In this document: positions 5,064 to 24,663 of the stretch, one piece after another
Layout: every line of letters starts with the position of its first letter
Position numbering within the stretch: position 1 is the first letter of the stretch
From: an uncultured Candidatus Saccharibacteria bacterium
GTDB taxonomy: Bacteria; Patescibacteriota; UBA1384; XYA2-FULL-43-10; 1-14-0-10-43-13
NCBI GenBank assembly: GCA_964543385.1
Contig: CAZIYE010000002.1
Span: 90,001 to 122,000, forward strand
DNA: 32,000 nucleotides
Reading direction: 5' to 3'
The notes under the pieces: model-generated
The model's database searches: none
Seen by the model: the letters and a program-made list of their open reading frames with translations, nothing else
What the model was told of the DNA's origin: nothing
Position numbers and translations under genes: made by a program

Positions 5064-5068
5064 CAGAT

Positions 5069-7551: not shown

Positions 7552-7614
7552 TGTGTTCCTTTAAAATTATTATTGTGAAATTTGATAATCAAAATTTAAC
7601 AAATCTGCAAAGTG

Positions 7615-7836: not shown

Positions 7837-8039
7837 CTCTTTCACCTCCCTTCGAAATTTTATATTATGTTTTTACTATCAAAACTTACACTACCGGCTG
7901 CTCCTCAGCCTTTCAATGATAATCTTGCCAAAACAATAGAGGTTAAAGCATAAGGATTTTTGCTATATATCACAGTACCTTGCTTTGGGGATGAAAAATG
8001 TTAAAATATTAAATATAGGACTATAAAATAAGGATAAAA

Positions 8040-8660: not shown

Positions 8661-8727
8661 CTGAGGGAAATAAAGATCTCTGTACTTTCATCTTCTTCTT
8701 TATCTGGACCAGTGTTATAATTACATC

Positions 8728-9531: not shown

Positions 9532-9544
9532 TTTGTTGGTAAAA

Positions 9545-10012: not shown

Positions 10013-11633
10013 GGGCGTCGTAAGGCTTTTTACTTAGAATTGGCATCGAGAAAAAGAAGGTTGTGCCTTTGTCAGCGCCATCGGAGTGAAACCAAATTTT
10101 ACCTTTTTGCAATTCAACAAATTTCTTAGATATATACATGCCAAGTCCGGTGCCCTTGACTTCGTCTTTAAGCACATCTACCTGAGTGAATTTCTCAAAG
10201 ACTGCCTGCTGGCGATCTTTTGGTATTCCCTTGCCATTATCCTCAACCGATATAACGATTTTTTGATCATCGTTCATAACTCTGACGACTATTTTGCCGC
10301 CATCGGGAGTGTATTTTATCGAGTTTCCGATGACATTAATAAGTACTTCAGTAATACGAGTAACGTCAAACCAAGTAGGTGGCATTTTGTGCTTAGGCTC
10401 TTCGAAAGTCAGTGTATGTTTGGCTTCTCGTGCCTTCGACATCACTTCAGTGATTGCTTGACTTATAACATCCTCGACAGGCTTTTGTTCCCAGATGATA
10501 TGGATTCGTCCAGACTCAATCCTGGAGACATTTAGGAGGTCTTTTACCATATTTGCAAGCCTTGTAGCGGATTGAAATACGCTATCGAGGTAAGTGCGAG
10601 CTTTATCAGGGATCTTGCCACCAAGACCCTCGATCAAAATCATAGAAAGGTAACCCTTGATCGCAGCGATAGGGGTATTGAGTTCATGCGATGCCATGGA
10701 CAAAAAGTCATCTTTCAATTTATCCACTTCCTTTAGATGATCATTGGCAGTCTCAAGATCTTTGGCAAGTTTTTGAATTTGTTCTCGACGTTTTATTTCC
10801 TGCTTGACAGACTTAATAAGTAAATATCCACCAATGGAAACCAAACAAAAGATTGTTGCATTGATCAAAAATTGGTTAAACGTTTTCGATAATATAGTTT
10901 GAGTTCCTATGGCAATAATTACGATTATAGCACTGGCTTCTGTTAAAATTACTTTTATATCAAAAAGTCCCTTTGCTACCATTGCATAGGTTGTGAATCC
11001 AACAAATGGTAGAACGAAATATGTGCCGAGGTATACAAAATTATCGAGCTTAAATACCAAAACGAGTATGAGATTAAAGAATATCATTAAAAAGAACATT
11101 GATGAAACTCCAGTAAAGATAAATTTTATTTGTTCTCTTATAAAACCTTCGGCCTTTAGAAATTTTTTTATTAATAAATAAAATCCTGTTCCTATAGAAC
11201 CAACTGCAGTAACTAGAAACAGTAACATGCCAGGGCCAACTTTTGGGCTTCTAGTATTGTTCACGGCATCGATTTCAACTCCAGGGAAGAATATAGGGGA
11301 CATCACAACCGCAATAGTTGCAACAACTACGATGGAATAAATAAAATAAAATTTACGTTTAAATGGCAGTTTTCCCTCTGGGAAAGCTTGAGCAAATAGA
11401 AAGAAAAAAACGGACTGAAGTACAGCGAAAACCATTACTAATCGCATGAGAATTAAAATAGTATTATAATCTTGGGCAAGCACAGAAAAATAATTTGAAA
11501 CAGACCATAAAACTAGTGAAAGGGTCAAGTAAAAAAATAAAGTTCTTAGGGTTTTGTTTTTGGACTTTGTTAATGCAATTATGCCCAGGACTAGATTTAG
11601 GGCTGCACCCAGAATAAGTATCAGCGCGTTCAT
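9984..11633 (-). CDS. Sensor histidine kinase with a multi-TM N-terminal domain
   Basis: 549-aa ORF. About 7 N-terminal TM helices, H-box SMASHELNTPIAAIKGY, N-box NVIGNSIKYT, G1 VEDNGKGIP, G2 GTGLGMYISKKF. AGGAGGG RBS. No response regulator in the window. Confidence 0.85.
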   Translation of the reverse strand: MNALILILGAALNLVLGIIALTKSKNKTLRTLFFYLTLSLVLWSVSNYFSVLAQDYNTILILMRLVMVFAVLQSVFFFLFAQAFPEGKLPFKRKFYFIYSIVVVATIAVVMSPIFFPGVEIDAVNNTRSPKVGPGMLLFLVTAVGSIGTGFYLLIKKFLKAEGFIREQIKFIFTGVSSMFFLMIFFNLILVLVFKLDNFVYLGTYFVLPFVGFTTYAMVAKGLFDIKVILTEASAIIVIIAIGTQTILSKTFNQFLINATIFCLVSIGGYLLIKSVKQEIKRREQIQKLAKDLETANDHLKEVDKLKDDFLSMASHELNTPIAAIKGYLSMILIEGLGGKIPDKARTYLDSVFQSATRLANMVKDLLNVSRIESGRIHIIWEQKPVEDVISQAITEVMSKAREAKHTLTFEEPKHKMPPTWFDVTRITEVLINVIGNSIKYTPDGGKIVVRVMNDDQKIVISVEDNGKGIPKDRQQAVFEKFTQVDVLKDEVKGTGLGMYISKKFVELQKGKIWFHSDGADKGTTFFFSMPILSKKPYDAHDGEGEVLH

Positions 11634-11660
11634 TTCCCTCCTATGATTAGCAATCAGATA

Positions 11661-12779
11661 TTATTTTAATTTACTCAAAAATTCTTTGGTATGATCAGCT
11701 CTTTTCTTTACGGAATCGTCTGAATAATAGTTTGGTATTAAAGCGCCATCTATAGAAACATGTAATCTTCCGTCCATAATAGGATTGTTCATGGCTATAT
11801 TTCTAATAATATATGAGCCTACTGATCCTGCTAACATTGATGCTGTAGATAGCTGGGGCCATGTCTTTATTGTTTTGCCCACCTCGAGTAATGAGTCTTG
11901 CATACGGCTGACGGCGTTTTGGGGTTGAACAATTTTTAGAGATAGAGTTACGCGGTCCTGCGGCGATAGTTTGCCATGACTATTTTTGATAAGTTTGATG
12001 TCTTCTTCTGATATTAAGCCGTGGAAAGGTTTCAAGCTAGATTTCAAGTCATATCTTTCTATGTCAACCATAACATTATCACCATTATCGGTAATCATTA
12101 TTAAAGGTATTTTTTTATCTTTAGCTATTAGGCGCATATGAAGCTTCAGATGCAGGCTGTCTATCTCGTCAAAAACTATATCAGAATCTTTTACAAATTC
12201 ATCAATATTGTCTTCACTTATACCATCAGAGAAAATTTGAACATTTATATACGGATTTATCTCATAAATTCTTCTTGCTAGAGCGATGGTTTTCTTTATA
12301 TTAACGGATAGTAGCTCTGTTACAATTCGATTCATATTCGATGTGGAAATTGAATCACCATCAGCAATCTTAATGTTTTTGCATCCGCCTTGCATAACAG
12401 TAGCTAATACAATATTACTGCCAACGCTTAGGCCGGCAACTGCAAGATTTGTATTCCGATATTTATCTTGTTCGGCGTGGTTTATTAAATATTTGTTGCG
12501 CGATGTTAGAAGAGTATAAAAGTCATTCTCTTCTAATGCCCTTATGACTGTTTTTCTCCATGGATAGACCACCAATGTCCCCAAGGTCTCTTGTTTAAAC
12601 TCTGACAATGTCAATTGTAGGTCAGCTTCTTTGCCTATACATGTCAGTTCAACCAATTCTTCAGCTTGGCACTCAAATATGTCGCTATAAACATATCCTT
12701 CGGAATTGAGTTTCAGCAAAATACTATCAAGCTCTTCTTTTGAGAAAAAATTAATTATATCTGGTTTAAATTGATCCAT
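11661..12779 (-). CDS. ThiF/MoeB/E1-like adenylyltransferase with an N-terminal extension of about 100 aa
   Basis: 372-aa ORF. Rossmann/ATP motif VAGLSVGSN...IKIADGDSISTSNMNRI and a Mg-binding-like FDEID. GAGGGAG RBS lies inside the 3' end of the upstream gene. Confidence 0.75.
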   Translation of the reverse strand: MDQFKPDIINFFSKEELDSILLKLNSEGYVYSDIFECQAEELVELTCIGKEADLQLTLSEFKQETLGTLVVYPWRKTVIRALEENDFYTLLTSRNKYLINHAEQDKYRNTNLAVAGLSVGSNIVLATVMQGGCKNIKIADGDSISTSNMNRIVTELLSVNIKKTIALARRIYEINPYINVQIFSDGISEDNIDEFVKDSDIVFDEIDSLHLKLHMRLIAKDKKIPLIMITDNGDNVMVDIERYDLKSSLKPFHGLISEEDIKLIKNSHGKLSPQDRVTLSLKIVQPQNAVSRMQDSLLEVGKTIKTWPQLSTASMLAGSVGSYIIRNIAMNNPIMDGRLHVSIDGALIPNYYSDDSVKKRADHTKEFLSKLK

Positions 12780-14305
12780 TGCTGTTTACTCCCTCTATCG
12801 TTACTAATTGATCCATAAGGCATGAATACAACTCTAGGCTTAGCCTTTTCTTGGCCAATTTTTTCAACAAGAGTTTTGTATTCATAGTTGTTCTTTAGAA
12901 GATTCGAATAAATCTTTTCTCCAACATTTTTTTTTAATTCATCATTTGGTTCGATATTCTTATTCAATTCAACGGCTATTTCAATATATTGATTTCTTAA
13001 ATCATCATACTTCGTGGTCATCGACATTCTAGTTGTCAATTTATCTATAATAGCTTGATCTTCAAGCCCTTTTCTAACTGTCTGCGGATAGATATTCAAG
13101 CCGTAGAGAGTAATCGTTTGGTCTGATTTCCCGTAGAGGACAATGAAAGGTAATTTCCATATGGGAAGATTTAGTTTCTTGGCCTCTTCTAAAATATCTA
13201 TACCTTCATTTTTAAATAAATTAATCATTTCATGGAAGCTATAGATAGTTCCATAATCGTGGAGGTTATAATCTAAAAGTGGCATTCCACCGACAGTAGA
13301 GCAAATTAATTCATTGTCTACGCATTCAAAGTGTTTTAAATGTGGATGATATTGAACAAAAGTAGAAACCGTTCTGCCATTGAAGAGTTTTTCAAGCAGC
13401 TTATCATTTTTGGCACATAGTCTTTTTATCATGATGCTAATAGGGGTCTCATGTCCAAGAATTGCTGCGTCAGCTGATCCATATGTATTCACGCTAGAAT
13501 TGTAGTAGTCTTTAATCTTTGCTTTCTTGTACAAATATTCGCGCCAATCTTCACTTATTGCCTCTGCGCCAAAGATGAATTTAAGGTTATACGAACCCCA
13601 GTCAAATCCCCTGGAAATACCTTCTTCAATTGTATCCTTTACAAAAGGAGGATATCCGCAGATCACTATTTGCTCATAGTTGTTTCCTATTTCGCTAATA
13701 ATTCTTAAAATGCTGTCCATGGAAATACCTGGAGTTATGACGGAAAGATCATACCCTCTCTGTGCTATTCTTAGGCAGGAATTTAGCGTAAATACACCGG
13801 CAACATACATACCCATTGAATAGGCATCGACTATTAATGTTCTTTTCTTGTCTATGTGAAAAAAATCCTTCAAGATCATCTCATAAATAATCGTTGTTTC
13901 TAGCTCCAAGTAATTGCCTCTAGGCCAAAAATACGGTTTTCCGCTTGAACCAGAACTGACAGAAACCATCTTAATGGAGTCCATATAATTGCCGGGAAGT
14001 AGTTCTGAAATAGGATATTCGTGCAGGTAATTTTTTTTGTCTATAAAACGGTTCGATTTGTTTGCTGAAAATTGCTTATAGGCGGGGACACTATTTTTTA
14101 TTTCGGCCTCAAGCTCTGAGTATATTTCTTTCGAATATTTCTCGATCTCTTTAGGGTCAGTATTTTTTAGATAATTTAAAGAAAAATCAACGTCATAAAT
14201 TTTAAGAGCCTCAAAAAAAGGATTGCTTGAATTGTTAATCTGTCCAATTGCTTGGTCTTTAAAATATGGTTTTAATGTTGTATAGTTATTAAAGATACTT
14301 TTCAT
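12755..14305 (-). CDS. Adenylate-forming enzyme, PaaK / F390-synthetase / LuxE-like
   Basis: P-loop-like SVSSGSSGKPYFWP and YGSADA motifs of the ANL/PaaK group. The ORF track starts at 14338 (GTG). The ATG at 14305 avoids overlap with the divergent gene. 25-nt overlap with the downstream E1-like gene. Confidence 0.7.
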   Translation of the reverse strand: MKSIFNNYTTLKPYFKDQAIGQINNSSNPFFEALKIYDVDFSLNYLKNTDPKEIEKYSKEIYSELEAEIKNSVPAYKQFSANKSNRFIDKKNYLHEYPISELLPGNYMDSIKMVSVSSGSSGKPYFWPRGNYLELETTIIYEMILKDFFHIDKKRTLIVDAYSMGMYVAGVFTLNSCLRIAQRGYDLSVITPGISMDSILRIISEIGNNYEQIVICGYPPFVKDTIEEGISRGFDWGSYNLKFIFGAEAISEDWREYLYKKAKIKDYYNSSVNTYGSADAAILGHETPISIMIKRLCAKNDKLLEKLFNGRTVSTFVQYHPHLKHFECVDNELICSTVGGMPLLDYNLHDYGTIYSFHEMINLFKNEGIDILEEAKKLNLPIWKLPFIVLYGKSDQTITLYGLNIYPQTVRKGLEDQAIIDKLTTRMSMTTKYDDLRNQYIEIAVELNKNIEPNDELKKNVGEKIYSNLLKNNYEYKTLVEKIGQEKAKPRVVFMPYGSISNDRGSKQQWINLNQI

Positions 14306-14311
14306 GATTCT

Positions 14312-14324
14312 AATATAGCATATT
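14312..14324. promoter_or_regulatory. Palindrome AATAT-AGC-ATATT in the 24-bp divergent gap
   Basis: Perfect 5+3+5 inverted repeat. The minus strand reads TGCTATATT (extended -10-like) 6 nt before the ATG at 14305. Confidence 0.35.
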
Positions 14325-14329
14325 AAATT

Positions 14330-15454
14330 ATGAGCCACAATAATAAAGAGGCAGCGCTTGTCCTGGGGGGACTAGGCTTAATAGGTGGGTCACTAGCCCA
14401 AGAACTTACAAAGAATTTTGACGTGTTTGTTGTGGACAGAAGAGAGCCTAAGGAAAAAAATGGAAGTGTGAAATATTATGTATCCGATGCGCTAAGTGTC
14501 TCAAGCCTTGAGAAGTTAATAATTGAACATGAGCCAAGACTAATCGTTAATTCAATAAATATAGCCACTATTTTTTCAGATAACCCTGAGGCAAACTATA
14601 AAAAGCTTGTTAAGTTTTACTATAGTTTGTATCAGATATTTAGTAAGATCTCACATCCGATACATTTCATTCAGATGGGGACAACTGGTTCTGGTGGACT
14701 AGGCTTTGATATTCCTTTTACTCATGGGGACAGAATAGAAGATCTCCCGATCATAAACAAGGCTGCTTTTGCCGGTGTTTCGACGGCAATGCTGACCCTT
14801 ATGTCCAGGTCTTTTGGCCATAGAGTAAAAGTGTCGGAAATTAAACCAGGCTTGTCAATTTTTCGAAAAGATATTGTTAAAGAAAAATTTGATGGCAGTA
14901 ACCTTATCCTTATAGATGGTGGTGAAAGTGGTTTTTATACATACAATGAACTAGCGCTCCTCACATGTTATATGGGTTTTACAACAGTAGACACGATCAT
15001 TGATAAAGTTATGAAAATTATTGGTGGCGATAAAAGCTTCCATAATCACTGTGTTTATGACACGATAGGCAGTCTCAATGGTGCTATTATTACGCAAAAT
15101 CACCTAGACCATTGGCGTTTGGTTAAATATCTTAATATTATGAAAAGACTGTCTGGCAAAGACTATATAATAGCTACGGGCAAACTTGGCCCTCCAAGCA
15201 TCACAAGAGACTTAATTCTTACATACCTAAAAAAGGAAAATCCTGATGTCGACGAGGAATCTTTTGCTAAGAAAATCAAGGGTGATGCAAATATAGTCAA
15301 TACAATAAAATTCATCAAGAAGAATGATAAAACTCTTTATGAATATCTATTAACTGAATTGAATTACGAAAACTATCTCAAAGCTATATATACTAAAGAT
15401 GAGCCGTGGGAAAACGTTAAAGCTATGTTGGCTAGACAGAAACTGATAGTATAG
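14330..15454 (+). CDS. Atypical NAD(P)-binding Rossmann-fold protein (SDR / reductase-like)
   Basis: 374-aa ORF. N-terminal ALVLGGLGLIGGSLAQEL dinucleotide-binding motif. An NKAAFAG segment resembles the SDR SKAA region, but I could not find a YxxxK. Confidence 0.55.
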   Translation: MSHNNKEAALVLGGLGLIGGSLAQELTKNFDVFVVDRREPKEKNGSVKYYVSDALSVSSLEKLIIEHEPRLIVNSINIATIFSDNPEANYKKLVKFYYSLYQIFSKISHPIHFIQMGTTGSGGLGFDIPFTHGDRIEDLPIINKAAFAGVSTAMLTLMSRSFGHRVKVSEIKPGLSIFRKDIVKEKFDGSNLILIDGGESGFYTYNELALLTCYMGFTTVDTIIDKVMKIIGGDKSFHNHCVYDTIGSLNGAIITQNHLDHWRLVKYLNIMKRLSGKDYIIATGKLGPPSITRDLILTYLKKENPDVDEESFAKKIKGDANIVNTIKFIKKNDKTLYEYLLTELNYENYLKAIYTKDEPWENVKAMLARQKLIV

Positions 15455-15474
15455 ACTAATCCACAGTTTTTCTT

Positions 15475-15503
15475 TTGACAATCTATGTGATCGCAGCTAA
15501 ACT
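15475..15503 (+). promoter_or_regulatory. Sigma70-type promoter opening an ORF-less region
   Basis: TTGACA (15475-15480), 17 nt, TAAACT (15498-15503). Confidence 0.45.
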
Positions 15504-15826
15504 ATATCAGTTCGCCATACTCTTATAGTTTATAGCGGACCTAGCTAATCATGGTCGTGCATTTATCTTGCTAGAAAGTGATGTGGCAACATCACAATAA
15601 TCAATCAATCCTCAAGGACTGATTTTTATTTTGGGCAGATTCCGGCTGCTCTTGCCAATCCAACCGTCTGGTTGTGTATTCCGGCAGAACATCACTGACT
15701 ATTTTATTGCACGTATTAGTCAACTAGATGTTAGCACTTTTCTATCCCTCCTGATCCACCCTGTTTGTAAAAAATGTGCAGATGGATCAGGATAGCGGTT
15801 TGTTCACTGTATAACCGCTGATAACA

Positions 15827-15868
15827 AATCAGCGTGTTGACAAAAAATCACACGCTGATTTTTGTTTG
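15827..15868 (+). terminator. Intrinsic terminator-like hairpin immediately upstream of the 15890 gene
   Basis: AATCAGCGTGT (15827-15837) pairs perfectly with ACACGCTGATT (15850-15860), followed by TTTGTTTG. Confidence 0.55.
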
Positions 15869-15889
15869 ATGTTTATGTATAATTTACTT

Positions 15890-16465
15890 ATGAAAATTTT
15901 ATCCAAAGAAAAATCTCGGGAGATATTAATCAAATTATTATCACTTTTCCAATGCGATCAGTTTGAGAAGATGGATAAATATCTCAATTCAAAGCCATTC
16001 AGATTCTTCAAATTCTATGCAAGCAATTCTTGCGAGCTCCCATTTTTATTTTGGGATGAAAAAGAAGCCAAGAAGATATTTGATTCCGCGATTAGTATTA
16101 GTGGTGCGGTAAAGGATAGTGATGGTGGTGTATACGGTATTGGTAATTATGATTATTTAGATAAATTAGCAAACTTTTTGAAAACACAGGGCTTTGTAAA
16201 TATATACGGCGCTGGTAATTGGGATCCCTTCGGCAATGTTGGTCACAGTGCCATTGGCCTAAATGTTAATGAAATTAGGGGTATTAGCAGACATAACTAC
16301 GATGACATCTATTTCTTTGATGAAAATTTTACCTGGATGCTCGCATTTAATCATCATAGAAACGGATTTTTTGCCGGATCAAAAGAAATGATAGAAGATT
16401 TTTCATATTCAGTGCCCGAATTTCGCAAATACCTCAGAGAAGAATGCTCCTGCTGCGGGCTTTGA
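15890..16465 (+). CDS. Hypothetical protein ending in CSCCGL
   Basis: The ORF track gives 15866-16465 (TTG start). TATAAT at 15878-15883 sits 6 nt before the ATG at 15890, so the mRNA may be leaderless. No family recognised. Confidence 0.55.
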   Translation: MKILSKEKSREILIKLLSLFQCDQFEKMDKYLNSKPFRFFKFYASNSCELPFLFWDEKEAKKIFDSAISISGAVKDSDGGVYGIGNYDYLDKLANFLKTQGFVNIYGAGNWDPFGNVGHSAIGLNVNEIRGISRHNYDDIYFFDENFTWMLAFNHHRNGFFAGSKEMIEDFSYSVPEFRKYLREECSCCGL

Positions 16466-16812
16466 CTTATCCGCTAAGTTGACATTTGACACCCTTTAAT
16501 TGCTTCTGTAGAATTTATGCATGGATACGTTATGGACAAAATTTAGACCCAAACGCAAGTTGCGGGCTAAGTGTGTCTTTGAAGAACTCCAAATAGATAG
16601 GACCCCTCTGGGGCCCTTTTTTGTATCCTGTACACTCACAATCTAACGAAAGGAGGACTCCGGAGAATGGGAGCAATGTTGGTACACGTTTCTGCATTAG
16701 AATATCTCTCAGTGCTCGCTCTTCGGAGATTCTCCGAAGAAGACCTGCGAAGGATTCAAAAAGCAGAGGATTTCGCTACTGAGAAGTTGCAAGGCATATT
16801 GCGGCGTGATGG
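16443..16812 (+). repeat. Perfect 370-bp direct repeat, copy 1 (partner 20231-20600)
   Basis: Identical by eye at an offset of 3788 bp. About 24 further upstream bases match with 3 mismatches. Confidence 0.9.
16486..16514 (+). promoter_or_regulatory. Sigma70-type promoter inside repeat copy 1
   Basis: TTGACA, 17 nt, TAGAAT. Confidence 0.55.
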
Positions 16813-16867
16813 TGCCGCGGTCAATATTGCGAGATTTATCTATACTGCCTTTCAAAATTCGCTGTAA
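16667..16867 (+). pseudogene. Truncated 5' copy of the HD hydrolase gene at 20455
   Basis: The first 48 codons are identical to 20455-20598. The sequence then diverges and stops after 18 unrelated codons. The HD catalytic motif is absent. Confidence 0.65.
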
Positions 16868-16887
16868 ATGCCCTGACCCCCTATAGC

Positions 16888-17229
16888 CTAAGTGCTGTGG
16901 GGGGTCTTGATATTAGTTCTTTTAAAGCTGCCGCGGACAAGTTTAAAAGCCAAGCGTCCGTCCTTGTGCTGCATCGGTGTACCGATTAATTCTCCGCAAT
17001 CACAAGTTAGATTTTTCAGGGTTGATTCGTCATGTTCATTGGAACTATTAAAACTATCGGATATTATCCGGTTTATATAACAACGTTTGAGCCAACCAGG
17101 ACCATCTTTCTGGTATAAAAATATCTTTTTTCCACATTTAGCGCACCTGACGCGGGTAATCTTAGCAGTGCCGCCTCTGGCAGCCAGATATTTATCTCTT
17201 TTGATTTTGAATTGGTGTGACTGTTCCAT
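16888..17229 (-). CDS. Hypothetical zinc-ribbon protein
   Basis: 113-aa basic ORF with CAKCG ... CDCG cysteine pairs. No family recognised and no obvious RBS. Confidence 0.45.
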   Translation of the reverse strand: MEQSHQFKIKRDKYLAARGGTAKITRVRCAKCGKKIFLYQKDGPGWLKRCYINRIISDSFNSSNEHDESTLKNLTCDCGELIGTPMQHKDGRLAFKLVRGSFKRTNIKTPHST

Positions 17230-17283
17230 TATAAAAAATTATTCGAATCATTATTATATCAATAAAGATTTTTTTTCTCAATT

Positions 17284-17373
17284 ATGAGAGAGCAAGATGA
17301 TTCAAAATTCTCATATTCAGTGCCTGAATATCGCAAATACCTCAAAGAAGAATGCTCCTGTTGTGGGCTTTAA
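17284..17373 (+). pseudogene. Relic or mini-ORF of the CSCCGL-tail gene family
   Basis: Hand translation MREQDDSKFSYSVPEYRKYLKEECSCCGL, then stop. Aligns with the last 22 residues of the 15890 gene product. Confidence 0.5.
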
Positions 17374-17405
17374 ATTTTTTAGTTCTGCATTACAGTAAAG
17401 CCAAT

Positions 17406-17434
17406 TTGACAAAACAAATTGCTTAGAATATCAT
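17406..17434 (+). promoter_or_regulatory. Sigma70-type promoter for the 17552 gene
   Basis: TTGACA, 17 nt, TATCAT. Confidence 0.45.
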
Positions 17435-17551
17435 CATATGAAACAAGCTTTATAGAAAGAAAAATATCTCCCAGACAAGTAAAATGTTGTTAGGGGATCA
17501 TCTTTTTATAGGACAAAATATAGAATTTAAAATCCAAGCAAGAATCAAAAA

Positions 17552-18952
17552 ATGAATGCCAATAATCAAAGAGTTGCTATAGCTGGACTTGGACCTCATG
17601 CCAAACGTATCTATATTAGGGTTCTCGCAAATTATGAAATTCAACCAAAATTAGTAATAGATATACAGTCTTCTGAGGAAAGTGTTAGGAAATTTCTAAG
17701 AGAGCATAAAATCAAATGTGATCTATATTTTGTACCGGATAAAAACAAAGATCTTAGGCGTCTTTCCGGAGAAGACAAGAAAAATATTGCACGTCTCCTC
17801 AAAAAAAATAAAATCAATAAAGCAATAATATCTACAGAACCAAAATCTCATGTCGCATATGCGGAATTTTTTTTGAAACAGAAGTTGCCAGTTCTAATGG
17901 ATAAGCCAGTTACGGCCATAAAAAATGCATGTTTCGATGATCGCCTTGCCCAGCAAATCTATAAAGAATATAAGCATCTGAGAGATATGTCTATTCAAAA
18001 TGATGTTCCTCTAGTAATCCAATCTCAGAGGAGATATCACGGTGGATATATCTTTATCAGGGAATTACTTAAAGATACCATATTAAAATATGGTATTCCG
18101 GTTACGCATATGGATATTTATCATTGTGATGGTCAATGGAATATGCCAATAGAATACATTACTAGGGATAATCATCCTTTTAATTATGGGTATGGTAAGG
18201 TTTTACATAGTGGCTATCATTTTGTTGATTTCATGAGTTGGATAGTAGCTCTTAACAATTTATTACCAGACAAAAAGCCGGATTGTTTCGATGCTATTCA
18301 CAAGACAGTTAAACCTCAAGATCAACTCTTTCAACTTAATGAAAGCTATGAAAAACTTTTTGAAAAAGAGTTACCAGGATTGCCAGAGAAAGATTTTTCC
18401 AAAATGGGTGAACTAGATTCTTACTCATTTATGCAATTCAAAAGAGAGGGCAAAGTAGTCACTTCTGTAAATCTGAATATGTTGCACAGTGGATTTTCTC
18501 GACGGGCTAGTTCTGAATTGGCCAAGGATGTTTATAAAGGTAATGGCAGGGTAAGGCATGAGAGAATAAATATCCAGATTGGTCCGATACTCAATATACA
18601 AGTTCATAGTTATCAATCTTATGAAATCAAAGATAGCAGTTATTCAAAGAAAGAGATTGAACCTGGCGGTTTAGACCACTTCGATATTTATATATTCAGG
18701 AATTCTGGTATTATCGGTGGCAAGTCGTTCGAAAAAATTCAGGTCTCCAACCGGAGCCGTATCAATAGGAGAACGCACATGGGCCATAATGAGGAAGCCA
18801 GGGAAAGGTGCACAAAAGATTGGTTACAAGGAAATGAGAGTGAGAATGATGTGTTAAAACACAAGCTCACTAATTTAGTTATGTCTACCCTATATCGCTG
18901 TTCTGCCAAGGAAAATTTAGGCAGATTCCCATATATGGAAGTTAAACTGTAG
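17552..18952 (+). CDS. Gfo/Idh/MocA-like oxidoreductase with a large uncharacterised C-terminal half
   Basis: 466-aa ORF. N-terminal RVAIAGLGPHAKRIY Rossmann start and AIISTEPKSHVAYAEFFLKQKLPVLMDKP, which resembles the family xTPxxxH...EKP block. Confidence 0.55.
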   Translation: MNANNQRVAIAGLGPHAKRIYIRVLANYEIQPKLVIDIQSSEESVRKFLREHKIKCDLYFVPDKNKDLRRLSGEDKKNIARLLKKNKINKAIISTEPKSHVAYAEFFLKQKLPVLMDKPVTAIKNACFDDRLAQQIYKEYKHLRDMSIQNDVPLVIQSQRRYHGGYIFIRELLKDTILKYGIPVTHMDIYHCDGQWNMPIEYITRDNHPFNYGYGKVLHSGYHFVDFMSWIVALNNLLPDKKPDCFDAIHKTVKPQDQLFQLNESYEKLFEKELPGLPEKDFSKMGELDSYSFMQFKREGKVVTSVNLNMLHSGFSRRASSELAKDVYKGNGRVRHERINIQIGPILNIQVHSYQSYEIKDSSYSKKEIEPGGLDHFDIYIFRNSGIIGGKSFEKIQVSNRSRINRRTHMGHNEEARERCTKDWLQGNESENDVLKHKLTNLVMSTLYRCSAKENLGRFPYMEVKL

Positions 18953-18990
18953 TTTGACAATCAAATCCAAGTACGAGGGGGAGCTGAAAG

Positions 18991-19683
18991 ATGCCGGTTA
19001 CTGTGGCGTTTGACGGTTTGAATCGATGCGGTAAAGGCACCCAGGCAGCATTGCTGCAGTCTCGCCTTCGCGAGATGGATGTTTTTTCCGTGATCATCAG
19101 AGGCGACGGTTCGAGGGATGGCTTGGGATTGACACCAGGTGATCCAGAAGACCTCTGGTGGCAAGGCTTCAAAAGCTGTCTAAAGGGCAGCGAAGGGACA
19201 ACGCGCTGGTTCGATAAATGGAATGAAGCAGCGTGTCGCTTAGCGCATGAATTAATTTGCTGGCAGGGAATAACATTCCCTCAAATGCTGAAAGATTCAG
19301 GGCGTAAAAGCGGAGTCTTACTTATCGATCGGAGCATTATTTCCAGAATTATGGTTATGCGGCAAGCCGGAGAGTATAACGGTTTAAACAGCCTGTATAC
19401 TGTCGGAGGCGAGCCACAAGACATTGACTGGGAAGAGGTGCTACCCACAGTGCTGTTCAATTTCCATGTGCCCCAAGAGGTACTTCTGGCACGGTTGGAT
19501 CATGATGATCCAAAGTATCAGTTCCGAAAGGGCATTATCGAACAGCATTTCCAACTCCATGTCTCTGTTTCTAGGGAGCTGCCAGAAGAAATTTTAGGCA
19601 GAACAATCCCTTTGAACGGCGACAATGAGCTTGAGGTTATCCACGAAGAAATATCTGCGGTAGTGGAACCTCTATTGCATTAG
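18991..19683 (+). CDS. P-loop nucleoside/nucleotide kinase, thymidylate-kinase-like
   Basis: 230-aa ORF. VAFDGLNRCGKGTQAALL resembles the Tmk FEGxDGxGKxTQ P-loop, and LIDRS resembles the DRY/DRS motif. GGGGGAG RBS. G+C-rich (34/60 at 19021-19080 by hand count). Confidence 0.55.
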   Translation: MPVTVAFDGLNRCGKGTQAALLQSRLREMDVFSVIIRGDGSRDGLGLTPGDPEDLWWQGFKSCLKGSEGTTRWFDKWNEAACRLAHELICWQGITFPQMLKDSGRKSGVLLIDRSIISRIMVMRQAGEYNGLNSLYTVGGEPQDIDWEEVLPTVLFNFHVPQEVLLARLDHDDPKYQFRKGIIEQHFQLHVSVSRELPEEILGRTIPLNGDNELEVIHEEISAVVEPLLH

Positions 19684-19693
19684 TGCGGGCAGA

Positions 19694-19716
19694 GTGTGGG
19701 GCAGGACGCCCCACAC
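19694..19716 (+). other. GC-rich hairpin between the kinase and Nudix genes
   Basis: GTGTGGGGC-AGGAC-GCCCCACAC, perfect 9-bp stem. It is followed by CATAATTTG, a weak U tract. Confidence 0.4.
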
Positions 19717-19746
19717 CATAATTTGAAAAAGTAATAAAAGGAGTAT

Positions 19747-20175
19747 ATGAGGCACAGTTTTGATTCAGTGAATGTCAGTACAATAATTTTTAATAGAAAA
19801 GGACAGGTTCTTTTGGGAAAAAGAAGTATGGACGAGGATGTATATCCCGGACTTTGGTGTGTGCCTGGAGGCAAGATAGATGTGGAAGCCTGTGAAGGTG
19901 AAATTATCGAGAACAATTTAAAAAGAGAGGTGAAGGAAGAGATAGGGATAGAGATAGAACCTCTCTTTTATCTTGCTAGCAATTGTCTTATAAAAGGAGA
20001 CGAGGCAAAATTATATCTGATGTTTGTATCAGAGCATGTTGCCGGTGAGCCATTTGCACTTGACGGTACCGAAGAAGTTAAATGGTTTGAAATCGATGAA
20101 CTAACACCAGAAATGCTAACGCCTAAAACCTATGACAATATTCAAAAAGCGAGTGACAAAAGAATATCTCTCTAA
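19747..20175 (+). CDS. Nudix hydrolase
   Basis: 142-aa ORF. Nudix box core NLKREVKEEIGIE with an expanded loop before it (GGKIDVEACEGE). AAGGAG RBS. Confidence 0.8.
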   Translation: MRHSFDSVNVSTIIFNRKGQVLLGKRSMDEDVYPGLWCVPGGKIDVEACEGEIIENNLKREVKEEIGIEIEPLFYLASNCLIKGDEAKLYLMFVSEHVAGEPFALDGTEEVKWFEIDELTPEMLTPKTYDNIQKASDKRISL

Positions 20176-20206
20176 AAATATCTAGACAATTTCGAAATCT
20201 TAATTT

Positions 20207-20253
20207 ATTTCCGCAAATATCTCAGAGAAAAATGCTCCTGCTGCGGGCTTTGA
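20207..20253 (+). pseudogene. Relic of the CSCCGL-tail 3' end
   Basis: Encodes ...YFRKYLREKCSCCGL then stop, with no start codon. The frame is continuous with the Nudix ORF across its TAA. Confidence 0.45.
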
Positions 20254-20600
20254 CTTATCCGCTAAGTTGACATTTGACACCCTTTAATTGCTTCTGTAGA
20301 ATTTATGCATGGATACGTTATGGACAAAATTTAGACCCAAACGCAAGTTGCGGGCTAAGTGTGTCTTTGAAGAACTCCAAATAGATAGGACCCCTCTGGG
20401 GCCCTTTTTTGTATCCTGTACACTCACAATCTAACGAAAGGAGGACTCCGGAGAATGGGAGCAATGTTGGTACACGTTTCTGCATTAGAATATCTCTCAG
20501 TGCTCGCTCTTCGGAGATTCTCCGAAGAAGACCTGCGAAGGATTCAAAAAGCAGAGGATTTCGCTACTGAGAAGTTGCAAGGCATATTGCGGCGTGATGG
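20231..20600 (+). repeat. Perfect 370-bp direct repeat, copy 2 (partner 16443-16812)
   Basis: See copy 1. Confidence 0.9.
20274..20302 (+). promoter_or_regulatory. Sigma70-type promoter of the HD hydrolase gene (inside repeat copy 2)
   Basis: TTGACA, 17 nt, TAGAAT, about 150 nt upstream of the ATG at 20455. Confidence 0.55.
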
Positions 20601-21090
20601 CACACCAGCCATTGAGCACTCAAGAGCACTTGCACTCAAAGCATGCGAGCTAAAACTGTCAGCAAACGCTATAGCGATTGCCTGGTTGCACGATGTGTTG
20701 GAGGACAACCTCAATGTCACATCGTGGGACCTGTACTGTTTGTTTGGAGTCGTCCATGGGGCGATCATCACCAACGGCGTAATAGCCTTGACACAATGCG
20801 ACTGGATGTCTGACGAAGTGTACTTCAATAGGATCGAAGTTGCATCCTCAGTCAACTGGGAGATTGTAGTCGTCAAATTAATTGATCGCTGGCATTTCCA
20901 TTCGGACTTTTACAACGGTCCGGAGAAGAAAGAGCTAGCCAAGATTGACCAGACACAGAAGATCTTCCAGCAGACTATCAGAAACTGTGAAGTATTAGTT
21001 CCGGAAGATTTCCGGTCGACATACAATCAGTTGCTGGATGAAGTACTGGAGCTTGCAGAAATCCGGCAAGCTGAACTAATGGCCGCATAG
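20455..21090 (+). CDS. RelA/SpoT-type HD-domain hydrolase (small alarmone hydrolase-like)
   Basis: 211-aa ORF. RRDGTPAIEHSRALAL...AIAIAWLHDVLEDN...LFGVVHGAIITNGVIALTQ parallels the SpoT/Mesh1 hydrolase block (R..G.PYI.HP..VA....AALLHDVVED....FG..V..LV.GVTK). AGGAGG RBS. Confidence 0.6.
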   Translation: MGAMLVHVSALEYLSVLALRRFSEEDLRRIQKAEDFATEKLQGILRRDGTPAIEHSRALALKACELKLSANAIAIAWLHDVLEDNLNVTSWDLYCLFGVVHGAIITNGVIALTQCDWMSDEVYFNRIEVASSVNWEIVVVKLIDRWHFHSDFYNGPEKKELAKIDQTQKIFQQTIRNCEVLVPEDFRSTYNQLLDEVLELAEIRQAELMAA

Positions 21091-21127
21091 GCTCTGTCCA
21101 CGATGGACCGAGCCTATTGCATTTTTA
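21090..21127 (+). terminator. Intrinsic terminator after the HD hydrolase gene
   Basis: GGCTC-T-GTCCA-CGA-TGGAC-C-GAGCC, then TATTGCATTTTTAT. Confidence 0.55.
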
Positions 21128-21165
21128 TATTAGAAAAATTAATCAAGTTATGCTATAAAAATAAT

Positions 21166-23337
21166 ATGAAAGAAATTGCAAAAGCCTACGACCATCAACA
21201 ATTTGAAGAACCCATCTATAAGCACTGGGAAGACTCTGGTTATTTTAAGCCTGAAATAAATATGGGCAAAAAGCCAGAATATGACAGAGAAATTGACGGT
21301 AAGCCTTTTGTTATCTCTATGCCACCGCCGAATGTAACAGGTAAGTTACATGTTGGCCACTCGTTGTTTATTACATTGCAAGATATAATGATCCGATATC
21401 ATCGCTTGAAAGGCGAACCAACTCTTTGGCTGCCAGGAACAGATCATGCAGGTATTGCCACTCAAACTGTAGTCGATAAAATGCTTAAGAAACAAGGAAT
21501 CGACAAGCGAGAGCTTGGCCGTGAAAAATTCATTGAAGAAGTGTGGAAATGGAAAGAAGAGTACGGAGGTACTATTACTAGACAACTCCGTCGTATGGGC
21601 GCTTCTTGTGACTGGTCAAGAGAGAGATTTACGCTTGATGAAGGCCTTAGTTTCGCTGTTCGTAAAGCCTTTGTTGATCTCTATAAAAAAGAGCTGATAT
21701 ATCAGGGGCTTAGAGTTGTGAACTGGTGTCCTCGTTGTCGTACAGCTATTGCTGATGATGAAGTCGAATATCAAGAACAGAAATCAAAATTATATTGGAT
21801 CAAATATGGTCCCTTTGTATTGGCGACTACTCGTCCTGAAACTAAATTAGGTGATACTGCAGTTGCGGTCAATCCAAAAGATAAAAGATACCTTGATATG
21901 GTTGGCAAAAAGTATATGATTCCGGGAGTTTTAGGTGAATTTGAGGTCATAGTGGTTGCTGACAATGCGGTTGATCCCGCGTTTGGTAGTGGTGCGGTAA
22001 AAGTCACTCCCGCACATAGCTTCGCGGACTACGAAATTGCTCAACGTCATAACCTTTCAATGAAGCAGATAATCGATGAAAATGGTCGTATGATGGCTAA
22101 TACTGGTAAATATGCCGGAATGAAGACCTCTGAGGCCAGAGAAGCCATAGTGGCGGACATGGACAAGCTGGGATTAATTGATCATGTAGACGAATATGAT
22201 AACAGTCTTCCGACTTGCTATCGTTGTGGAGGAACTATCGAGCCGATTCCATCGAAGCAATGGTTTGTTAAGATGAAAGATCTTGCCAATAGGGCAAAGA
22301 AAGTTGTTGAAGATGGAAAAATGGATATAATTCCTGATCGTTTCAAAAAGTTGTATATCCAATGGATGGAAAATATTCGCGACTGGTGCGTGTCTCGTCA
22401 AATTTGGTGGGGTCATCAGATCCCAGTTTGGTATAGGGGTGATGAGATCTATTGCGGCATGGAAGCTCCCGATGGTAAGGATTGGAAACAGGATCAAGAT
22501 GTGCTCGATACTTGGTTTTCCTCTGCCTTGTGGCCTTTTTCAACCCTTGGTTGGCCAGGGGAGACAAAGGACTACAACTATTTTTATTCCACAACAGTAA
22601 TGGAAACTGGTTATGATATTTTGCCTTTCTGGGTAGCTAGAATGGCTACTTTTGGTCTCGAATTTACCGGCAAGGTACCTTTTGAAACTGTTTATTTTCA
22701 CGGCCTAGTTCGCGATGAAAAGAATAGGAAAATGAGCAAATCTCTTGGCAATGTTTTAGACCCTCTCGATATTATTCCAAAATATGGCACGGATGCTCTT
22801 AGGATGGCGCTTGTAGTCGGTTCAGCTCCTGGTCAAGATTTAGCAGTAGGGGAGTCAAAGATTAAGGGCTATCGTAATTTCTCTAATAAAATATGGAACG
22901 CTTCCCGGTTTGTTCTGCTGCAAGTTTCAAATGGGGATTTAAGAACCGGTGAAATTGGTGCAGCAAGGTTAGATAGTTTAGACATAAACAAAGCAACTCT
23001 AACTAATCAAGACAAAGCTATACTAAAGGATTTAGAAAATGTTAAAAAGTCCGTCACGGAGAAATTAGACAAGTTCAGATTCTCTCAAGCAGGAGAGGAA
23101 TTGTATGAATTTTTCTGGCATACATTTTGTGACATCTATATAGAAAAAGCAAAAGAACAAATTGCAGATGAGAAGTTCAAGGATAATACTAAAAAAATAT
23201 TGATAAAAATCCTCTCTGAATCCCTAATCCTTCTTCATCCTTTTGTGCCTTTCGTCACTGAGGCTGTATGGCAGGAGCTTCGGAAGGTATATCCAGATCT
23301 CTCCAAATCCATCATGATTTCAAGATGGCCTCTATAA
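21166..23337 (+). CDS. valS: Valyl-tRNA synthetase
   Basis: PPPNVTGKLHVGH (HIGH), GTDHAGIATQ, KMSKS. The start was moved from 21103 to the ATG at 21166 because 21103 overlaps the upstream terminator. Confidence 0.9.
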   Translation: MKEIAKAYDHQQFEEPIYKHWEDSGYFKPEINMGKKPEYDREIDGKPFVISMPPPNVTGKLHVGHSLFITLQDIMIRYHRLKGEPTLWLPGTDHAGIATQTVVDKMLKKQGIDKRELGREKFIEEVWKWKEEYGGTITRQLRRMGASCDWSRERFTLDEGLSFAVRKAFVDLYKKELIYQGLRVVNWCPRCRTAIADDEVEYQEQKSKLYWIKYGPFVLATTRPETKLGDTAVAVNPKDKRYLDMVGKKYMIPGVLGEFEVIVVADNAVDPAFGSGAVKVTPAHSFADYEIAQRHNLSMKQIIDENGRMMANTGKYAGMKTSEAREAIVADMDKLGLIDHVDEYDNSLPTCYRCGGTIEPIPSKQWFVKMKDLANRAKKVVEDGKMDIIPDRFKKLYIQWMENIRDWCVSRQIWWGHQIPVWYRGDEIYCGMEAPDGKDWKQDQDVLDTWFSSALWPFSTLGWPGETKDYNYFYSTTVMETGYDILPFWVARMATFGLEFTGKVPFETVYFHGLVRDEKNRKMSKSLGNVLDPLDIIPKYGTDALRMALVVGSAPGQDLAVGESKIKGYRNFSNKIWNASRFVLLQVSNGDLRTGEIGAARLDSLDINKATLTNQDKAILKDLENVKKSVTEKLDKFRFSQAGEELYEFFWHTFCDIYIEKAKEQIADEKFKDNTKKILIKILSESLILLHPFVPFVTEAVWQELRKVYPDLSKSIMISRWPL

Positions 23338-23623
23338 ACAGTCTTTAGTAGTAGTCAGCTGTTTGTCGATTAAATAATTTCTATTTGGTCTTTTCTATAT
23401 TGTTTTAGTTGTCATATTCTAGGATTATTTTGTTAAATATCATTAATCAACATTATTGCCACAAATGGTTGGATTTTTAGCAAAAACAAGTAGTAAACAG
23501 CATAAAAAAGAACAGATAGCTCAAAAAAGAAGGCAAAGATTTCGAGCTAAGCTTTGGCAGCACAGTAATAAATATGTTGACATGTGGTTTAAAAAAATTA
23601 AAAGTTTTTTTAACAGGAGATAG

Positions 23624-24127
23624 ATGGCTGGAAGAAGAAAAAAGCAAATAGCAATCGGTACAATCATGGCCCTTATAATTATTCTTGTAGTTGTATTCTT
23701 TTATGGAATTAAGGCAGATAATAGGCAGGATAATCCAGAAATAACAAGTATACGGACTGATAGCTTTGATGAGAAAGTACATAATGTAGAGCCCGACAAA
23801 GCGTATTTAAGAAGTATAGATACAGAAGGGTTTGGTTTAACAAAAAGGATCTATGCAAACGGCAAGTTTATGCATACTGTGAGTGCAAGTTTGCCGCTAG
23901 TAGAGGATCCGGAGTTTTACCAGGGATGGCTTGTTAAGCCTGGCAATGATGTTGATAAAGAAGAATTTATTGCGACAGGAAAACTTATTTATACTGAGAG
24001 TGAATTTTTTCTCTTTTATGAATCGGATCAGGACTTGAAAGATTTCTCAAAAATTATAGTTTCGAAACAGATTCAAAATGATGCTGTTCCTAATAGCTAT
24101 GTTCTAGTCGGATCATTTGCAAACTGA
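23624..24127 (+). CDS. Single-pass membrane-anchored hypothetical protein
   Basis: 167-aa ORF. AGGAGA RBS and an N-terminal TM helix IAIGTIMALIIILVVVFFYGI. The C-terminal YQGWLVKPG segment weakly recalls anti-sigma-K RskA C-domains (low certainty). Confidence 0.5.
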   Translation: MAGRRKKQIAIGTIMALIIILVVVFFYGIKADNRQDNPEITSIRTDSFDEKVHNVEPDKAYLRSIDTEGFGLTKRIYANGKFMHTVSASLPLVEDPEFYQGWLVKPGNDVDKEEFIATGKLIYTESEFFLFYESDQDLKDFSKIIVSKQIQNDAVPNSYVLVGSFAN

Positions 24128-24198
24128 TTTTGACAAAATAGCAGATATCGCCTAATATAAATGTATTAAATTATTTAGGCAAAAACCAAGGAGAGCAT

Positions 24199-24663
24199 AT
24201 GAGTAACAATTTAAAAACTTTTCTATTCATACTTTTAGCAGTTTTCTTAGTTTCTGGAGGGCTTATCTTTATAAGCGCAAAGTCAAAGAAAAGTGCTGAT
24301 AGCAATACAACTACCCAAAGCGAGGACGGCGGAGTAGCTGGTGCGTCGACTCAGGACGAAAAAAGTGAAGGGAAAAAAGATAGCGCTTATATTGAAAAGT
24401 TGGCAAAGTTTATGGCTGAAAAGGGTATGGTCATGTTCGGTGCATATTGGTGCCCGCACTGTGTCGACCAGAAAAAGCTTTTCGGTGATGCCTTCAAATA
24501 TGTTGACTATGTTGAGTGCGATGAGAAGGGTCCAAATGCAAATCCAGACGAATGTGTGGCAAATGGAATAGAAGGATACCCAACGTGGGTTTATCAAGGT
24601 CAGCAATACGGTGGCTATAAATCTTTCTCCGAGCTTGCAAAAATAGTAGGATTTAACGAATAG
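24199..24663 (+). CDS. Membrane-anchored thioredoxin-fold protein (VKOR-partner-like Trx domain)
   Basis: 154-aa ORF. N-terminal TM helix, CPHC active site in GAYWCPHCVDQKKLFG, second Cys pair ECD...ECV, and GYPTW. Confidence 0.7.
   Translation: MSNNLKTFLFILLAVFLVSGGLIFISAKSKKSADSNTTTQSEDGGVAGASTQDEKSEGKKDSAYIEKLAKFMAEKGMVMFGAYWCPHCVDQKKLFGDAFKYVDYVECDEKGPNANPDECVANGIEGYPTWVYQGQQYGGYKSFSELAKIVGFNE

Follow-up and report, generated by a model that had tools for sequence, protein, structure and literature searches.

A 392-bp segmental duplication bracketing a four-gene module of an uncultured CPR-type bacterium: a probable scar of general recombination by the host

The window (the whole stretch of DNA that was analysed, 32,000 nucleotides) carries two long direct repeats around a small group of genes, and the coordinates of all features are collected in Table 1. 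Base-by-base comparison at an offset of 3788 showed that 16443-16812 and 20231-20600 form one exact 370-bp run, and the same pair came out of the repeat search. To the left of this run, 16421-16442 and 20209-20230 matched over 22 bp with three mismatches (16423, 16432 and 16442), position 16420 differed between the copies, and further left the similarity was at chance level. The right edge was sharp, with mismatches from 16813 on. Both copies have the same orientation, the whole duplicated segment measures 392 bp including the three mismatches, and the spacer between the copies (16813-20230) is 3418 bp long. All three mismatches sit in the leftmost 22 of the 392 bp (P about 1.8e-4). Chance cannot account for an exact repeat of 370 bp in 32 kb, and the segmental duplication of 392 bp, of which 370 bp are exact, is a real feature of the chromosome of this uncultured CPR/Patescibacteria-type bacterium. 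The duplicated unit comprises the last 14 codons of a gene that we call X, a promoter, a leader of ~146 nt, an AGGAGG ribosome-binding site (RBS) and the first 48 codons of an HD hydrolase gene. The original prediction of identical 370-bp copies at this offset was borne out by the computed alignment and the repeat search, and its list of repeat contents (CSCCGL tail, promoter, AGGAGG, HD start) matched the sequence coordinates; it had also given about 24 further upstream bases with 3 mismatches, of which the mismatch count was right and the length is 22.

Table 1 Features of the duplicated locus (positions in the window)
Feature	Position	Strand	Remarks
Gene X	15866-16465	+	ORF, 199 aa from TTG; C-terminal tail CSCCGL
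Repeat copy 1	16421-16812	+	exact from 16443; JGI contig L008 spans all of it, with unique flanks on both sides
Promoter-like site, copy 1	16486-16514	+	TTGACA-17-TAGAAT; 11/12 consensus matches
Leader, copy 1	16521-16666	+	ATG at expected transcription start, conserved hairpin, terminator-like hairpin + U6 at 16599-16623
Truncated HD' ORF	16667-16867	+	66 aa: 48 HD codons + 18 unrelated codons
Join J2, illegitimate	16812-16813		HD codon 48/49 against region downstream of Zn-ribbon gene; identity to copy 2 ends
Zn-ribbon protein gene	16888-17229	-	113 aa, CxxC...CxC
X-tail relic a'	17295-17373	+	last ~26 codons of a diverged X allele; one frameshift near 5' end
P2, native downstream flank of X	17374-17551	+	promoter-like TTGACA-17-TATCAT at 17406-17434; now drives Gfo operon
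Gfo/Idh/MocA-like oxidoreductase	17552-18952	+	466 aa; Pfam PF01408
P-loop kinase	18991-19683	+	230 aa; weak dTMP kinase match
Nudix hydrolase	19747-20175	+	142 aa; Pfam PF00293, E=1.7e-18
Repeat copy 2	20209-20600	+	exact from 20231; opens with relic a''
X-tail relic a''	20209-20250, stop 20251-20253	+	last 14 codons + TGA stop; start of copy 2
Promoter-like site, copy 2	20274-20302	+	TTGACA-17-TAGAAT; promoter scan
Leader, copy 2	20309-20454	+	terminator-like hairpin + U6 at 20387-20411
Intact HD gene	20455-21090	+	211 aa, RelA/SpoT hydrolase-domain homolog
Valyl-tRNA synthetase	21103-23337	+	conserved right-hand neighbour of HD; context

Gene X, which ends with a stop codon at 16463-16465 and is called at 191-196 aa in other assemblies, is a rare gene. 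Its only Pfam match was a weak, sub-threshold one to DUF6756, only three relatives were found in 5.8 billion protein clusters, and the ortholog in contig L024 of a relative is 74% identical at the DNA level. The locus carries three 3' ends of X. Relic a' is ~88% identical to 16388-16463 and stays in frame over its last 21 codons with four synonymous and two conservative changes, and counting all differences between the X tails gave six synonymous against three non-synonymous (P about 0.01, expectation 25% synonymous). This predominance of synonymous differences means that the three tails derive from diverged functional alleles of X.

The original prediction had placed a Zn-ribbon gene, an X-tail relic, a Gfo-like gene, a kinase-like gene and a Nudix gene in the 3418-bp cargo, and all were located between 16813 and 20230. 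The Zn-ribbon protein had no family match in Pfam and further profile scans, and its homologs adjoin the Gfo-kinase-Nudix operon in contigs L027 (66% aa identity, best tblastx segment) and L039. The Gfo-like oxidoreductase has 847 homologs, many of them fused to Nudix, and the Nudix hydrolase itself gave MutT-like matches under the curated cut-offs. The P-loop kinase is named thymidylate kinase by one source. Its G+C content is 0.49 in the window, 0.44 in L027 and 0.50 in L039, and since the gene is G+C-rich in three genomes, this is a property of the gene itself; the cargo as a whole (G+C 0.388 vs 0.382 for the window) showed no foreign composition signal. The four-gene module recurs in the same two CPR-like contigs with differing contexts and gene orders. 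In L039 it abuts SU10-like phage genes and the homology begins 3 nt before the Gfo ATG, so the module boundaries vary by genome. Searches for plasmid or phage relatives of the cargo returned one 110-bp match, covering 3% of the query, to a gene of a Bacillus plasmid that carries a Nudix-domain annotation, and profile scans of the cargo ORFs found no replication gene.

Each copy of the repeat leads into the HD gene, and the two products that had been predicted, one truncated (66 aa) and one full-length (211 aa), were both found as ORFs. The truncated ORF does not have the H..HD motif, as the conserved H79 and D80 lie beyond codon 48. The intact protein fell just under the cut-off for Pfam HD_4, matched NCBIfam SpoT/RelA models (E about 1e-9) and matched structures of Rel/SpoT hydrolase domains over residues 14-173 (E about 1e-8), and H55, H79 and D80 are invariant in the HD family alignment. 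It looks like a small alarmone hydrolase with a single HD domain. The promoter architecture of copy 1, where the RBS is at 16651-16656, was also found upstream of four HD homologs, and a few Saccharibacteria-like genomes have the leader conserved 5' of a RelA/SpoT-hydrolase-like gene, as judged from an alignment and consensus fold of five sequences from three lineages.

The relatives suggest how the locus was arranged before. The closest relative has, directly after X, the promoter region that forms part of the cargo in the window: L024 10497-10683 aligns with window 17295-17483 at 73%, and the alignment of the two P2 regions was beaten by 0 of 500 shuffles. The HD gene of that relative has another left neighbour, and synteny with its contig L001 begins at window 20253 and continues to the right; the two contigs L001 and L024 are taken to belong to a single genome. 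Among the nearest relatives, TruD comes after X, other genes come before HD, and X and HD are at separate loci. The comparison shows that the X-P2 adjacency is ancestral and the X-HD adjacency derived, as the relative keeps the former and has a different left neighbour of HD. Because X and HD lie at different loci in the closest relatives, we infer the target locus itself, and neither an unoccupied X-repeat-HD locus nor a circular form was found in the contigs and relatives, where the unoccupied-plus-circle and integrated forms share all k-mers.

Taken as a whole, the structure is of a known kind, and the repeat looks like the scar of ordinary host recombination in a much-rearranged locus, not like a new kind of mobile element. 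We consider it rather probable that a Campbell-type or unequal-exchange duplication was made by the general recombination of the host, without an element-encoded recombinase; we infer the mechanism, the order of events and the capacity of the module for excision. A looped-out, circular or sister-chromosome copy of the module would already have carried a piece of the X-HD junction, joined to it by a single illegitimate join (16812/16813), and would then have crossed over homologously with the resident X-HD junction, with the switch point at 16442/16443. Such an exchange would keep one intact X and one intact, correctly promoted HD gene and would leave behind an orphan promoter, a leader and a 66-aa stub. 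As the copies are identical, the event is recent, or gene conversion keeps them so. RecA-type recombination between the copies would delete the module cleanly and restore X-leader-HD, in line with the precise excision that had been predicted.

The truncations are reciprocal: the left side has the intact X and 48 codons of HD, and the right side has the intact HD and a 14-codon relic of X. The clustering of mismatches at the left end marks the end-point of a crossover or conversion and not a uniformly young duplicate, and together with the synonymous excess in the X tails it points to exchange between diverged alleles. A diverged X tail next to a 100% identical 370-bp repeat is awkward for a one-step Campbell event, so a donor from the same population or a later gene conversion would be needed. 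As in the Campbell integration of non-replicating plasmids, a direct copy of the homology segment stands on either side of the insert, each interrupted gene is present once intact and once truncated, the event can do without a dedicated recombinase, and recombination between the copies would reverse it. Unlike in such integrations, neither a circular donor nor a vector backbone nor an unoccupied site was seen here, and the insert holds the ancestral downstream flank of X and relics of two diverged alleles of X, which makes for at least two or three superimposed events. The original prediction had read the locus as a Campbell-type integration of a circular element or a duplication-insertion. 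The reciprocal truncation agrees with this layout, but the derived X-HD adjacency, the diverged X tails and the lack of foreign composition speak against the simple integration of a foreign circle at a long-standing X-HD locus.

The abrupt change from three mismatches in 22 bp to none in 370 bp would also be explained if an old duplication had been homogenised by gene conversion, that is, if the copies were ancient (dating back about as far as the 7-12% divergence between the X tails) and a recent conversion tract had made about 370 bp identical and left the leftmost 22 bp unconverted. The X-tail relics do look old and diverged under selection. However, the identity reaches the illegitimate join at 16812 with no unconverted right margin, whereas a conversion tract has to be flanked by homology left and right. 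Nor was any genome seen in which the copies differ, and we regard this explanation as rather unlikely.

In the duplication genetics of Salmonella and E. coli, the join point connects the end of a unit illegitimately with its own start, instability is expected of long perfect direct repeats, and duplications collapse in a RecA-dependent manner. The present locus shares with such classical segmental or tandem duplications a join of this shape and long perfect direct repeats that are expected to be unstable. It may thus be the remnant of a 3,788-bp unit (16813-20600) doubled head to tail at J2, of which most of the first copy would have been deleted by recombination between the upstream X tail and relic a'' of that copy; the switch at 16442/16443 falls inside the X tail, where such a crossover is expected. 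But two separate events would be required, and the crossover would have had no more than about 44 bp of homology (93%) to work with. In contrast to the classical cases, the doubling is now limited to the last 392 bp of the 3,788-bp unit, and the 3.4-kb body is single-copy. A tandem origin therefore seems improbable to us.

As the sequence comes from a metagenome assembly, an X-repeat-HD chromosome and a separate cargo-repeat molecule or strain could have been threaded together through the shared 370 bp, and an unoccupied chromosome plus a circle has the same k-mers as the integrated form, which contigs alone cannot distinguish. Short-read assemblers traverse a 370-bp repeat only through read pairing. 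However, JGI contig L008 (1553 bp, metagenome 3300045131), which comes from a different assembly but possibly from the same or a sibling sample, is 100% identical to window 15561-17113 and follows the same path: it begins in unique X sequence, crosses all of copy 1 and ends in the first part of the cargo. The Logan contigs, which come from 4-5 runs, all break off within a repeat, exactly 30 nt from its boundary (L025 and L026 end at 16472, and L009 spans 16783-20260), as expected for k=31 assembly over a true exact repeat, which means that all four branch junctions exist in those reads; J2 itself is present in both L008 and L009. The cargo also has neither a replication gene nor, apart from the 110-bp match, plasmid or phage relatives, which speaks against a separate molecule. 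The worry about a strain-merging artefact, raised in the original prediction, is thus largely answered for copy 1, and for copy 2, which no independent contig spans, the cargo-repeat-HD path is that of the source assembly. We give an assembly artefact a low probability.

A site-specific mobile island driven by an integrase, Xer or transposase, with the repeats as attachment sites, is very improbable: direct repeats do flank a module that occurs in different contexts and next to phage genes in L039, as in integrase islands and prophages, but no recombinase was found when the ORFs of the cargo and its surroundings were scanned with Pfam, NCBIfam and PADLOC (none was predicted, and none is present in the 20 ORFs across 5078-24663), the repeats are 370-392 bp of promoter and coding sequence (~10x the typical att length, built of a promoter and two gene ends), there are no terminal inverted repeats and no compositional signal, the only tRNA gene of the window (3934-4007) is 12 kb away, and the module boundaries differ between genomes. 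An integrase island, prophage, ICE or IME is contradicted by the lack of an integrase, of short att repeats and of a tRNA target, and an IS element or composite transposon by a repeat that has no transposase-domain ORF and no inverted repeats at its ends.

With an illegitimate join, a homologous switch point, relics of three diverged alleles of the same gene and a module in varied contexts, the locus would be a well-documented example of operon reshuffling by general recombination alone in a small-genome uncultured CPR-type bacterium. If reads show occupied and unoccupied forms, it would also be a natural case of reversible gene-module gain.

A further reading, which we offer as a speculation with only a slim chance of being right, is that the duplicated unit combines a self-contained regulatory device with the 3' end of X as a recurring homology handle for swapping operons between strains. 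The conserved X 3' end might let recombinase-poor bacteria exchange whole operons. The device would consist of a strong promoter, a conserved hairpin and a leaderless micro-ORF whose stop codon lies at the base of an intrinsic terminator. It might couple expression of the alarmone-hydrolase-like gene to translation efficiency in CPR bacteria, and the orphan second copy left by the duplication might still make a short RNA or peptide. The leader is the more interesting by-product of this analysis, and no known RNA family matched it: the window gave no Rfam match at gathering score, and the leader searched alone gave only E>3 noise. Unlike attenuators of the trp, pheST and erm types, its ORF would be leaderless, the peptide varies between lineages, and no alternative antiterminator pairing was established from the five sequences of three lineages. 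Like them, the leader has a promoter, a short ORF, a hairpin and a terminator-like hairpin with a U-tract about 45 nt before the RBS of the gene, and in three of its five homologs the stop codon adjoins the terminator stem.

Base-by-base comparison and a repeat search showed that 16443-16812 and 20231-20600 form a single unbroken 370-bp identity at an offset of 3788 bp, which bears out the perfect direct repeats claimed for this locus. To the left, 16421-16442 and 20209-20230 still matched with three mismatches (16423, 16432, and 16442), so the original prediction was right about the three mismatches but not about a length of about 24 bases, and left of 16420/20208 only chance-level similarity was found. 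On the right, divergence was complete from 16813/20601 onward, and the cargo spacer between the copies was 3418 bp. The predicted contents, namely the tail of X (the gene ending in copy 1), the promoter, the ribosome-binding site, the start of the HD gene, and the 66-aa and 211-aa ORFs, were accurate, as was the spacer length. A MAFFT alignment hinted that promoter and leader occur once more at 17374-17551, the promoter region before the Gfo operon (P2), but this was rejected, since local alignment of the repeat with P2 was not significant (score reached by 22 of 500 shuffles); the third repetition in the window is limited to the X tail only.

Positions of features in the window and in contigs of relatives (L numbers)
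Feature	Window	Relatives	Remark
X stop codon TGA	16463-16465		after ...CSCCGL
Promoter TTGACA-17-TAGAAT	16486-16514 and 20274-20302		
AGGAGG	16651-16656		
ATG of 66-aa ORF	16667		copy 1
ATG of 211-aa HD gene	20455		copy 2
Leader	16521-16666 and 20309-20454	L001 1399-1545; L002 9871-10000; L006 456-565; L007 278-407	
Module	16888-20175	L027 6001-8629 and 11529-12032; L039 9519-12972	
Kinase gene	18991-19683	L027 7436-8134; L039 11434-12141	

Three X 3' ends are present in the window: that of the intact gene, relic a' (17295-17373), and relic a'' (20209-20253). In the in-frame part, a' differed from the intact tail by four synonymous changes (TGA to TAA included) and two conservative ones, and a'' by two synonymous changes and one non-synonymous change. 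Synonymous changes thus made up 6 of 9 across both relics (P ~0.01 under a 25% synonymous expectation), which means that the relics came from X genes that diverged while functional, in other alleles or lineages, and are not resident X copies in decay. Of the 392 bp, only the 22 at the left edge held a'' mismatches, all three of them (P ~1.8e-4), and this clustering marks 16442/16443 as the site of a homologous crossover or as the place where a conversion tract ends. The other edge of the identity, 16812/16813, is an illegitimate join.

The relatives showed how the locus was arranged before. L001, whose HD protein was 83% identical to that of the window, was collinear with it from the first base past the X stop codon (20253) through HD, the valyl-tRNA synthetase gene, and beyond, and its left neighbours of HD were other genes, absent from the window. 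A decayed X tail upstream of the L001 leader was considered and dropped, because its ~41-47% identity by eye was indistinguishable from chance. L024, from the same sample as L001, had an X with 77% aa identity and, downstream of it, a promoter region and then TruD. Its 10497-10683, covering the X 3' end and downstream sequence, matched window 17295-17483 (relic a' and what follows) at 73%, and the score of the two P2 regions was far above all shuffles. This match indicates that relic a' and the promoter now driving the Gfo operon are the ancestral downstream flank of X, which makes the adjacency of X, leader, and HD derived, and so the entry of a foreign circle into an old X-HD locus is less credible. 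Of the earlier proposal of Campbell-type integration or duplication-insertion, the layout was supported, while a clean insertion of a circle was not. Between a conserved 7TM histidine kinase and X, gene content was wholly different in window 9984-16465 (ThiF-like, 527-aa, and epimerase-like genes) and L024 1182-10570 (decarboxylase, acetyltransferase, and others); this region is a variable island with X as its right edge.

Host general recombination best accounts for the structure: truncation is reciprocal, there is a single illegitimate join and a single homologous switch, and no recombinase is present. A copy of the module that was looped out, circular, or on a sister chromosome, and that already bore a piece of the X-HD junction, would have crossed over with the resident junction, and such a Campbell-type or unequal exchange is the reading towards which we lean. 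An older duplication homogenised by gene conversion would account for the abrupt change in divergence, but it leaves unexplained why identity reaches the illegitimate join, and we regard it as unlikely. A further route would be tandem duplication of a unit of 3,788 bp and then deletion from X tail to X tail; we consider it distinctly improbable. The functional outcome is identical in all scenarios with real DNA: X is intact, HD has its own promoter and leader, and the promoter and leader on the left are orphaned, with a 66-aa stub behind them. Transcription from the left copy would meet a hairpin with a 13-bp stem at 16875-16906, convergent with the Zn-ribbon gene. This hairpin is G+C-rich and overlaps the Zn-ribbon stop codon, and it is probably a bidirectional terminator between the orphan copy and that gene. 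Repeats recombine in a RecA-dependent manner, and 370 bp of perfect homology should permit clean loss of the module. The observation was thus confirmed and its interpretation partly supported, and a duplication generated by recombination around a gene module is a known kind of structure; the locus, mosaic and prone to rearrangement in a CPR-type genome, is a new example of it.

A mis-threaded assembly was judged very unlikely from the contigs of other assemblies. Exact 66-aa stub, kinase, Gfo-like, and Nudix proteins were on record in other assemblies, to which the truncated 66-aa product and the kinase led, and searches for exact matches to X and HD proteins of the window came back empty. A 1553-bp contig of JGI metagenome 3300045131 (L008) equalled window 15561-17113 at 100% identity, starting with 860 bp of unique sequence on the X side, crossing copy 1 entirely, and ending 301 bp into the cargo; for copy 2, no spanning contig was found in any other assembly. 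Two Logan contigs (L025 in 4 runs and L026 in one) stopped at 16472, 30 nt inside copy 1, and a third (L009, 5 runs) covered 16783-20260, that is, the cargo with 30 nt of repeat at either end. Logan contigs are built with k=31, and this break pattern is the expectation for a true exact repeat, which means that those reads contain each of the two sequences that lead into the repeat and each of the two that follow it. An integrated module and a coexisting unoccupied X-R-HD arrangement (R, the repeat) or free circle look the same in contigs, because neither of the latter adds a new junction. Exact-pattern scans for the 29-nt terminator motif found it absent from the metagenome_contigs, genome_contigs, and viral_contigs collections, and L008 places the sequence in the JGI metagenome.

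A site-specific element is hardly credible, since every defining feature tested contradicts it; scans of the cargo and of 20 ORFs across 5078-24663 turned up no integrase, transposase, or replication protein, so the predicted lack of integrase and transposase held. The cargo carries a Zn-ribbon ORF (- strand), a Gfo/Idh/MocA-like oxidoreductase, a P-loop kinase with a weak dTMP-kinase match, and a Nudix hydrolase, and the Gfo-like protein and the kinase had no solved-structure relatives by sequence. The Gfo-kinase-Nudix operon was found in two further CPR-like contigs, with Gfo at 76% aa and 69% DNA identity to the window in L027 and 80% and 72% in L039. Both have a Zn-ribbon homolog near the operon, differing from the window in position and orientation: in L027 it is on the other strand, 3 kb downstream, and in L039 it comes immediately downstream on the operon's own strand, where a paralog also lies upstream. 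Many of the 847 Gfo homologs were fused to a Nudix domain, and with this and their recurrence in varied order the four genes make up a coherent functional module, one that is often moved or rearranged. Three paralogous membrane-protein genes precede the module in L027; in L039, an HTH repressor and SU10-like phage genes (portal, major capsid, adaptor, amidase) at 1-9472 directly adjoin it, at a prophage or phage boundary beside the Gfo operon.

Phage or plasmid origin of the cargo was rejected, as IMG/VR, INPHARED, and PLSDB contained no relatives except for a single short hit, 110 bp or 3% of the query, in a Bacillus plasmid gene that carries a Nudix-domain annotation. A defence-system reading was also rejected; only the Nudix protein matched a PADLOC candidate (PDC-S07), and this may reflect the shared Nudix fold alone. 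The G+C of the cargo was 0.388 and that of the window 0.382, and the kinase gene was 5-13 points higher than its neighbours in all three genomes (window, L027, and L039). We therefore rejected G+C as a sign of foreign origin: the kinase gene is G+C-rich in its own right, which does not mark it as recently transferred, and composition gave no evidence of recent foreign origin of the cargo.

HD has a single domain, homologous to the RelA/SpoT hydrolase domain, and H55, H79, and D80 are kept in its family alignment, so the catalytic motif is missing from the 48-codon stub. The host probably belongs to the CPR/Patescibacteria; among named genomes, the nearest HD homolog was in a Candidatus Saccharibacteria MAG, and a close Gfo homolog was in a Parcubacteria-group MAG. 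Our literature search found no paper linking small alarmone hydrolases to Saccharibacteria.

We regard the leader of HD as the most novel element of the region. It was compared at the five available HD homologs (window, L001, L002, L006, and L007), which represent three lineages with 56-83% aa identity to the window's HD. One layout was common to all five: a consensus-like promoter, an ATG 6-7 nt after the -10 hexamer, which is the expected transcription start, a Lys/Arg-rich ORF of 21-41 codons, a hairpin with a few compensatory pairs, and, ~45 nt ahead of the ribosome-binding site, a G+C-rich terminator-like hairpin and its U-tract. The ORF stop codon abuts the foot of the terminator stem in L001, L002, and L006 and lies 8 nt upstream of the stem in L007, and the window ORF reads through owing to a 1-nt difference. 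Nucleotide blocks are kept across different reading frames, which favours constraint at the RNA level. Rfam gave no family match, and a covariance model search of 263 kb of sequence, distant HD_4 loci included, added no copies. From these five sequences, the leader could possibly be a translation-coupled attenuator, a riboswitch-like leader or new cis-regulatory RNA, or a small RNA.

Elsewhere in the window, three tandem paralogs of small KGG-repeat general-stress-like proteins (78, 54, and 76 aa) lie at 7122-7845 (- strand) and give rise to the direct-repeat families D2 and D3. A bacterial class A RNase P RNA (4699-5025, - strand, 186.6 bits) and a tRNA-Gln(UUG) gene (3934-4007, - strand) are ordinary housekeeping RNAs ~12 kb from the repeat.
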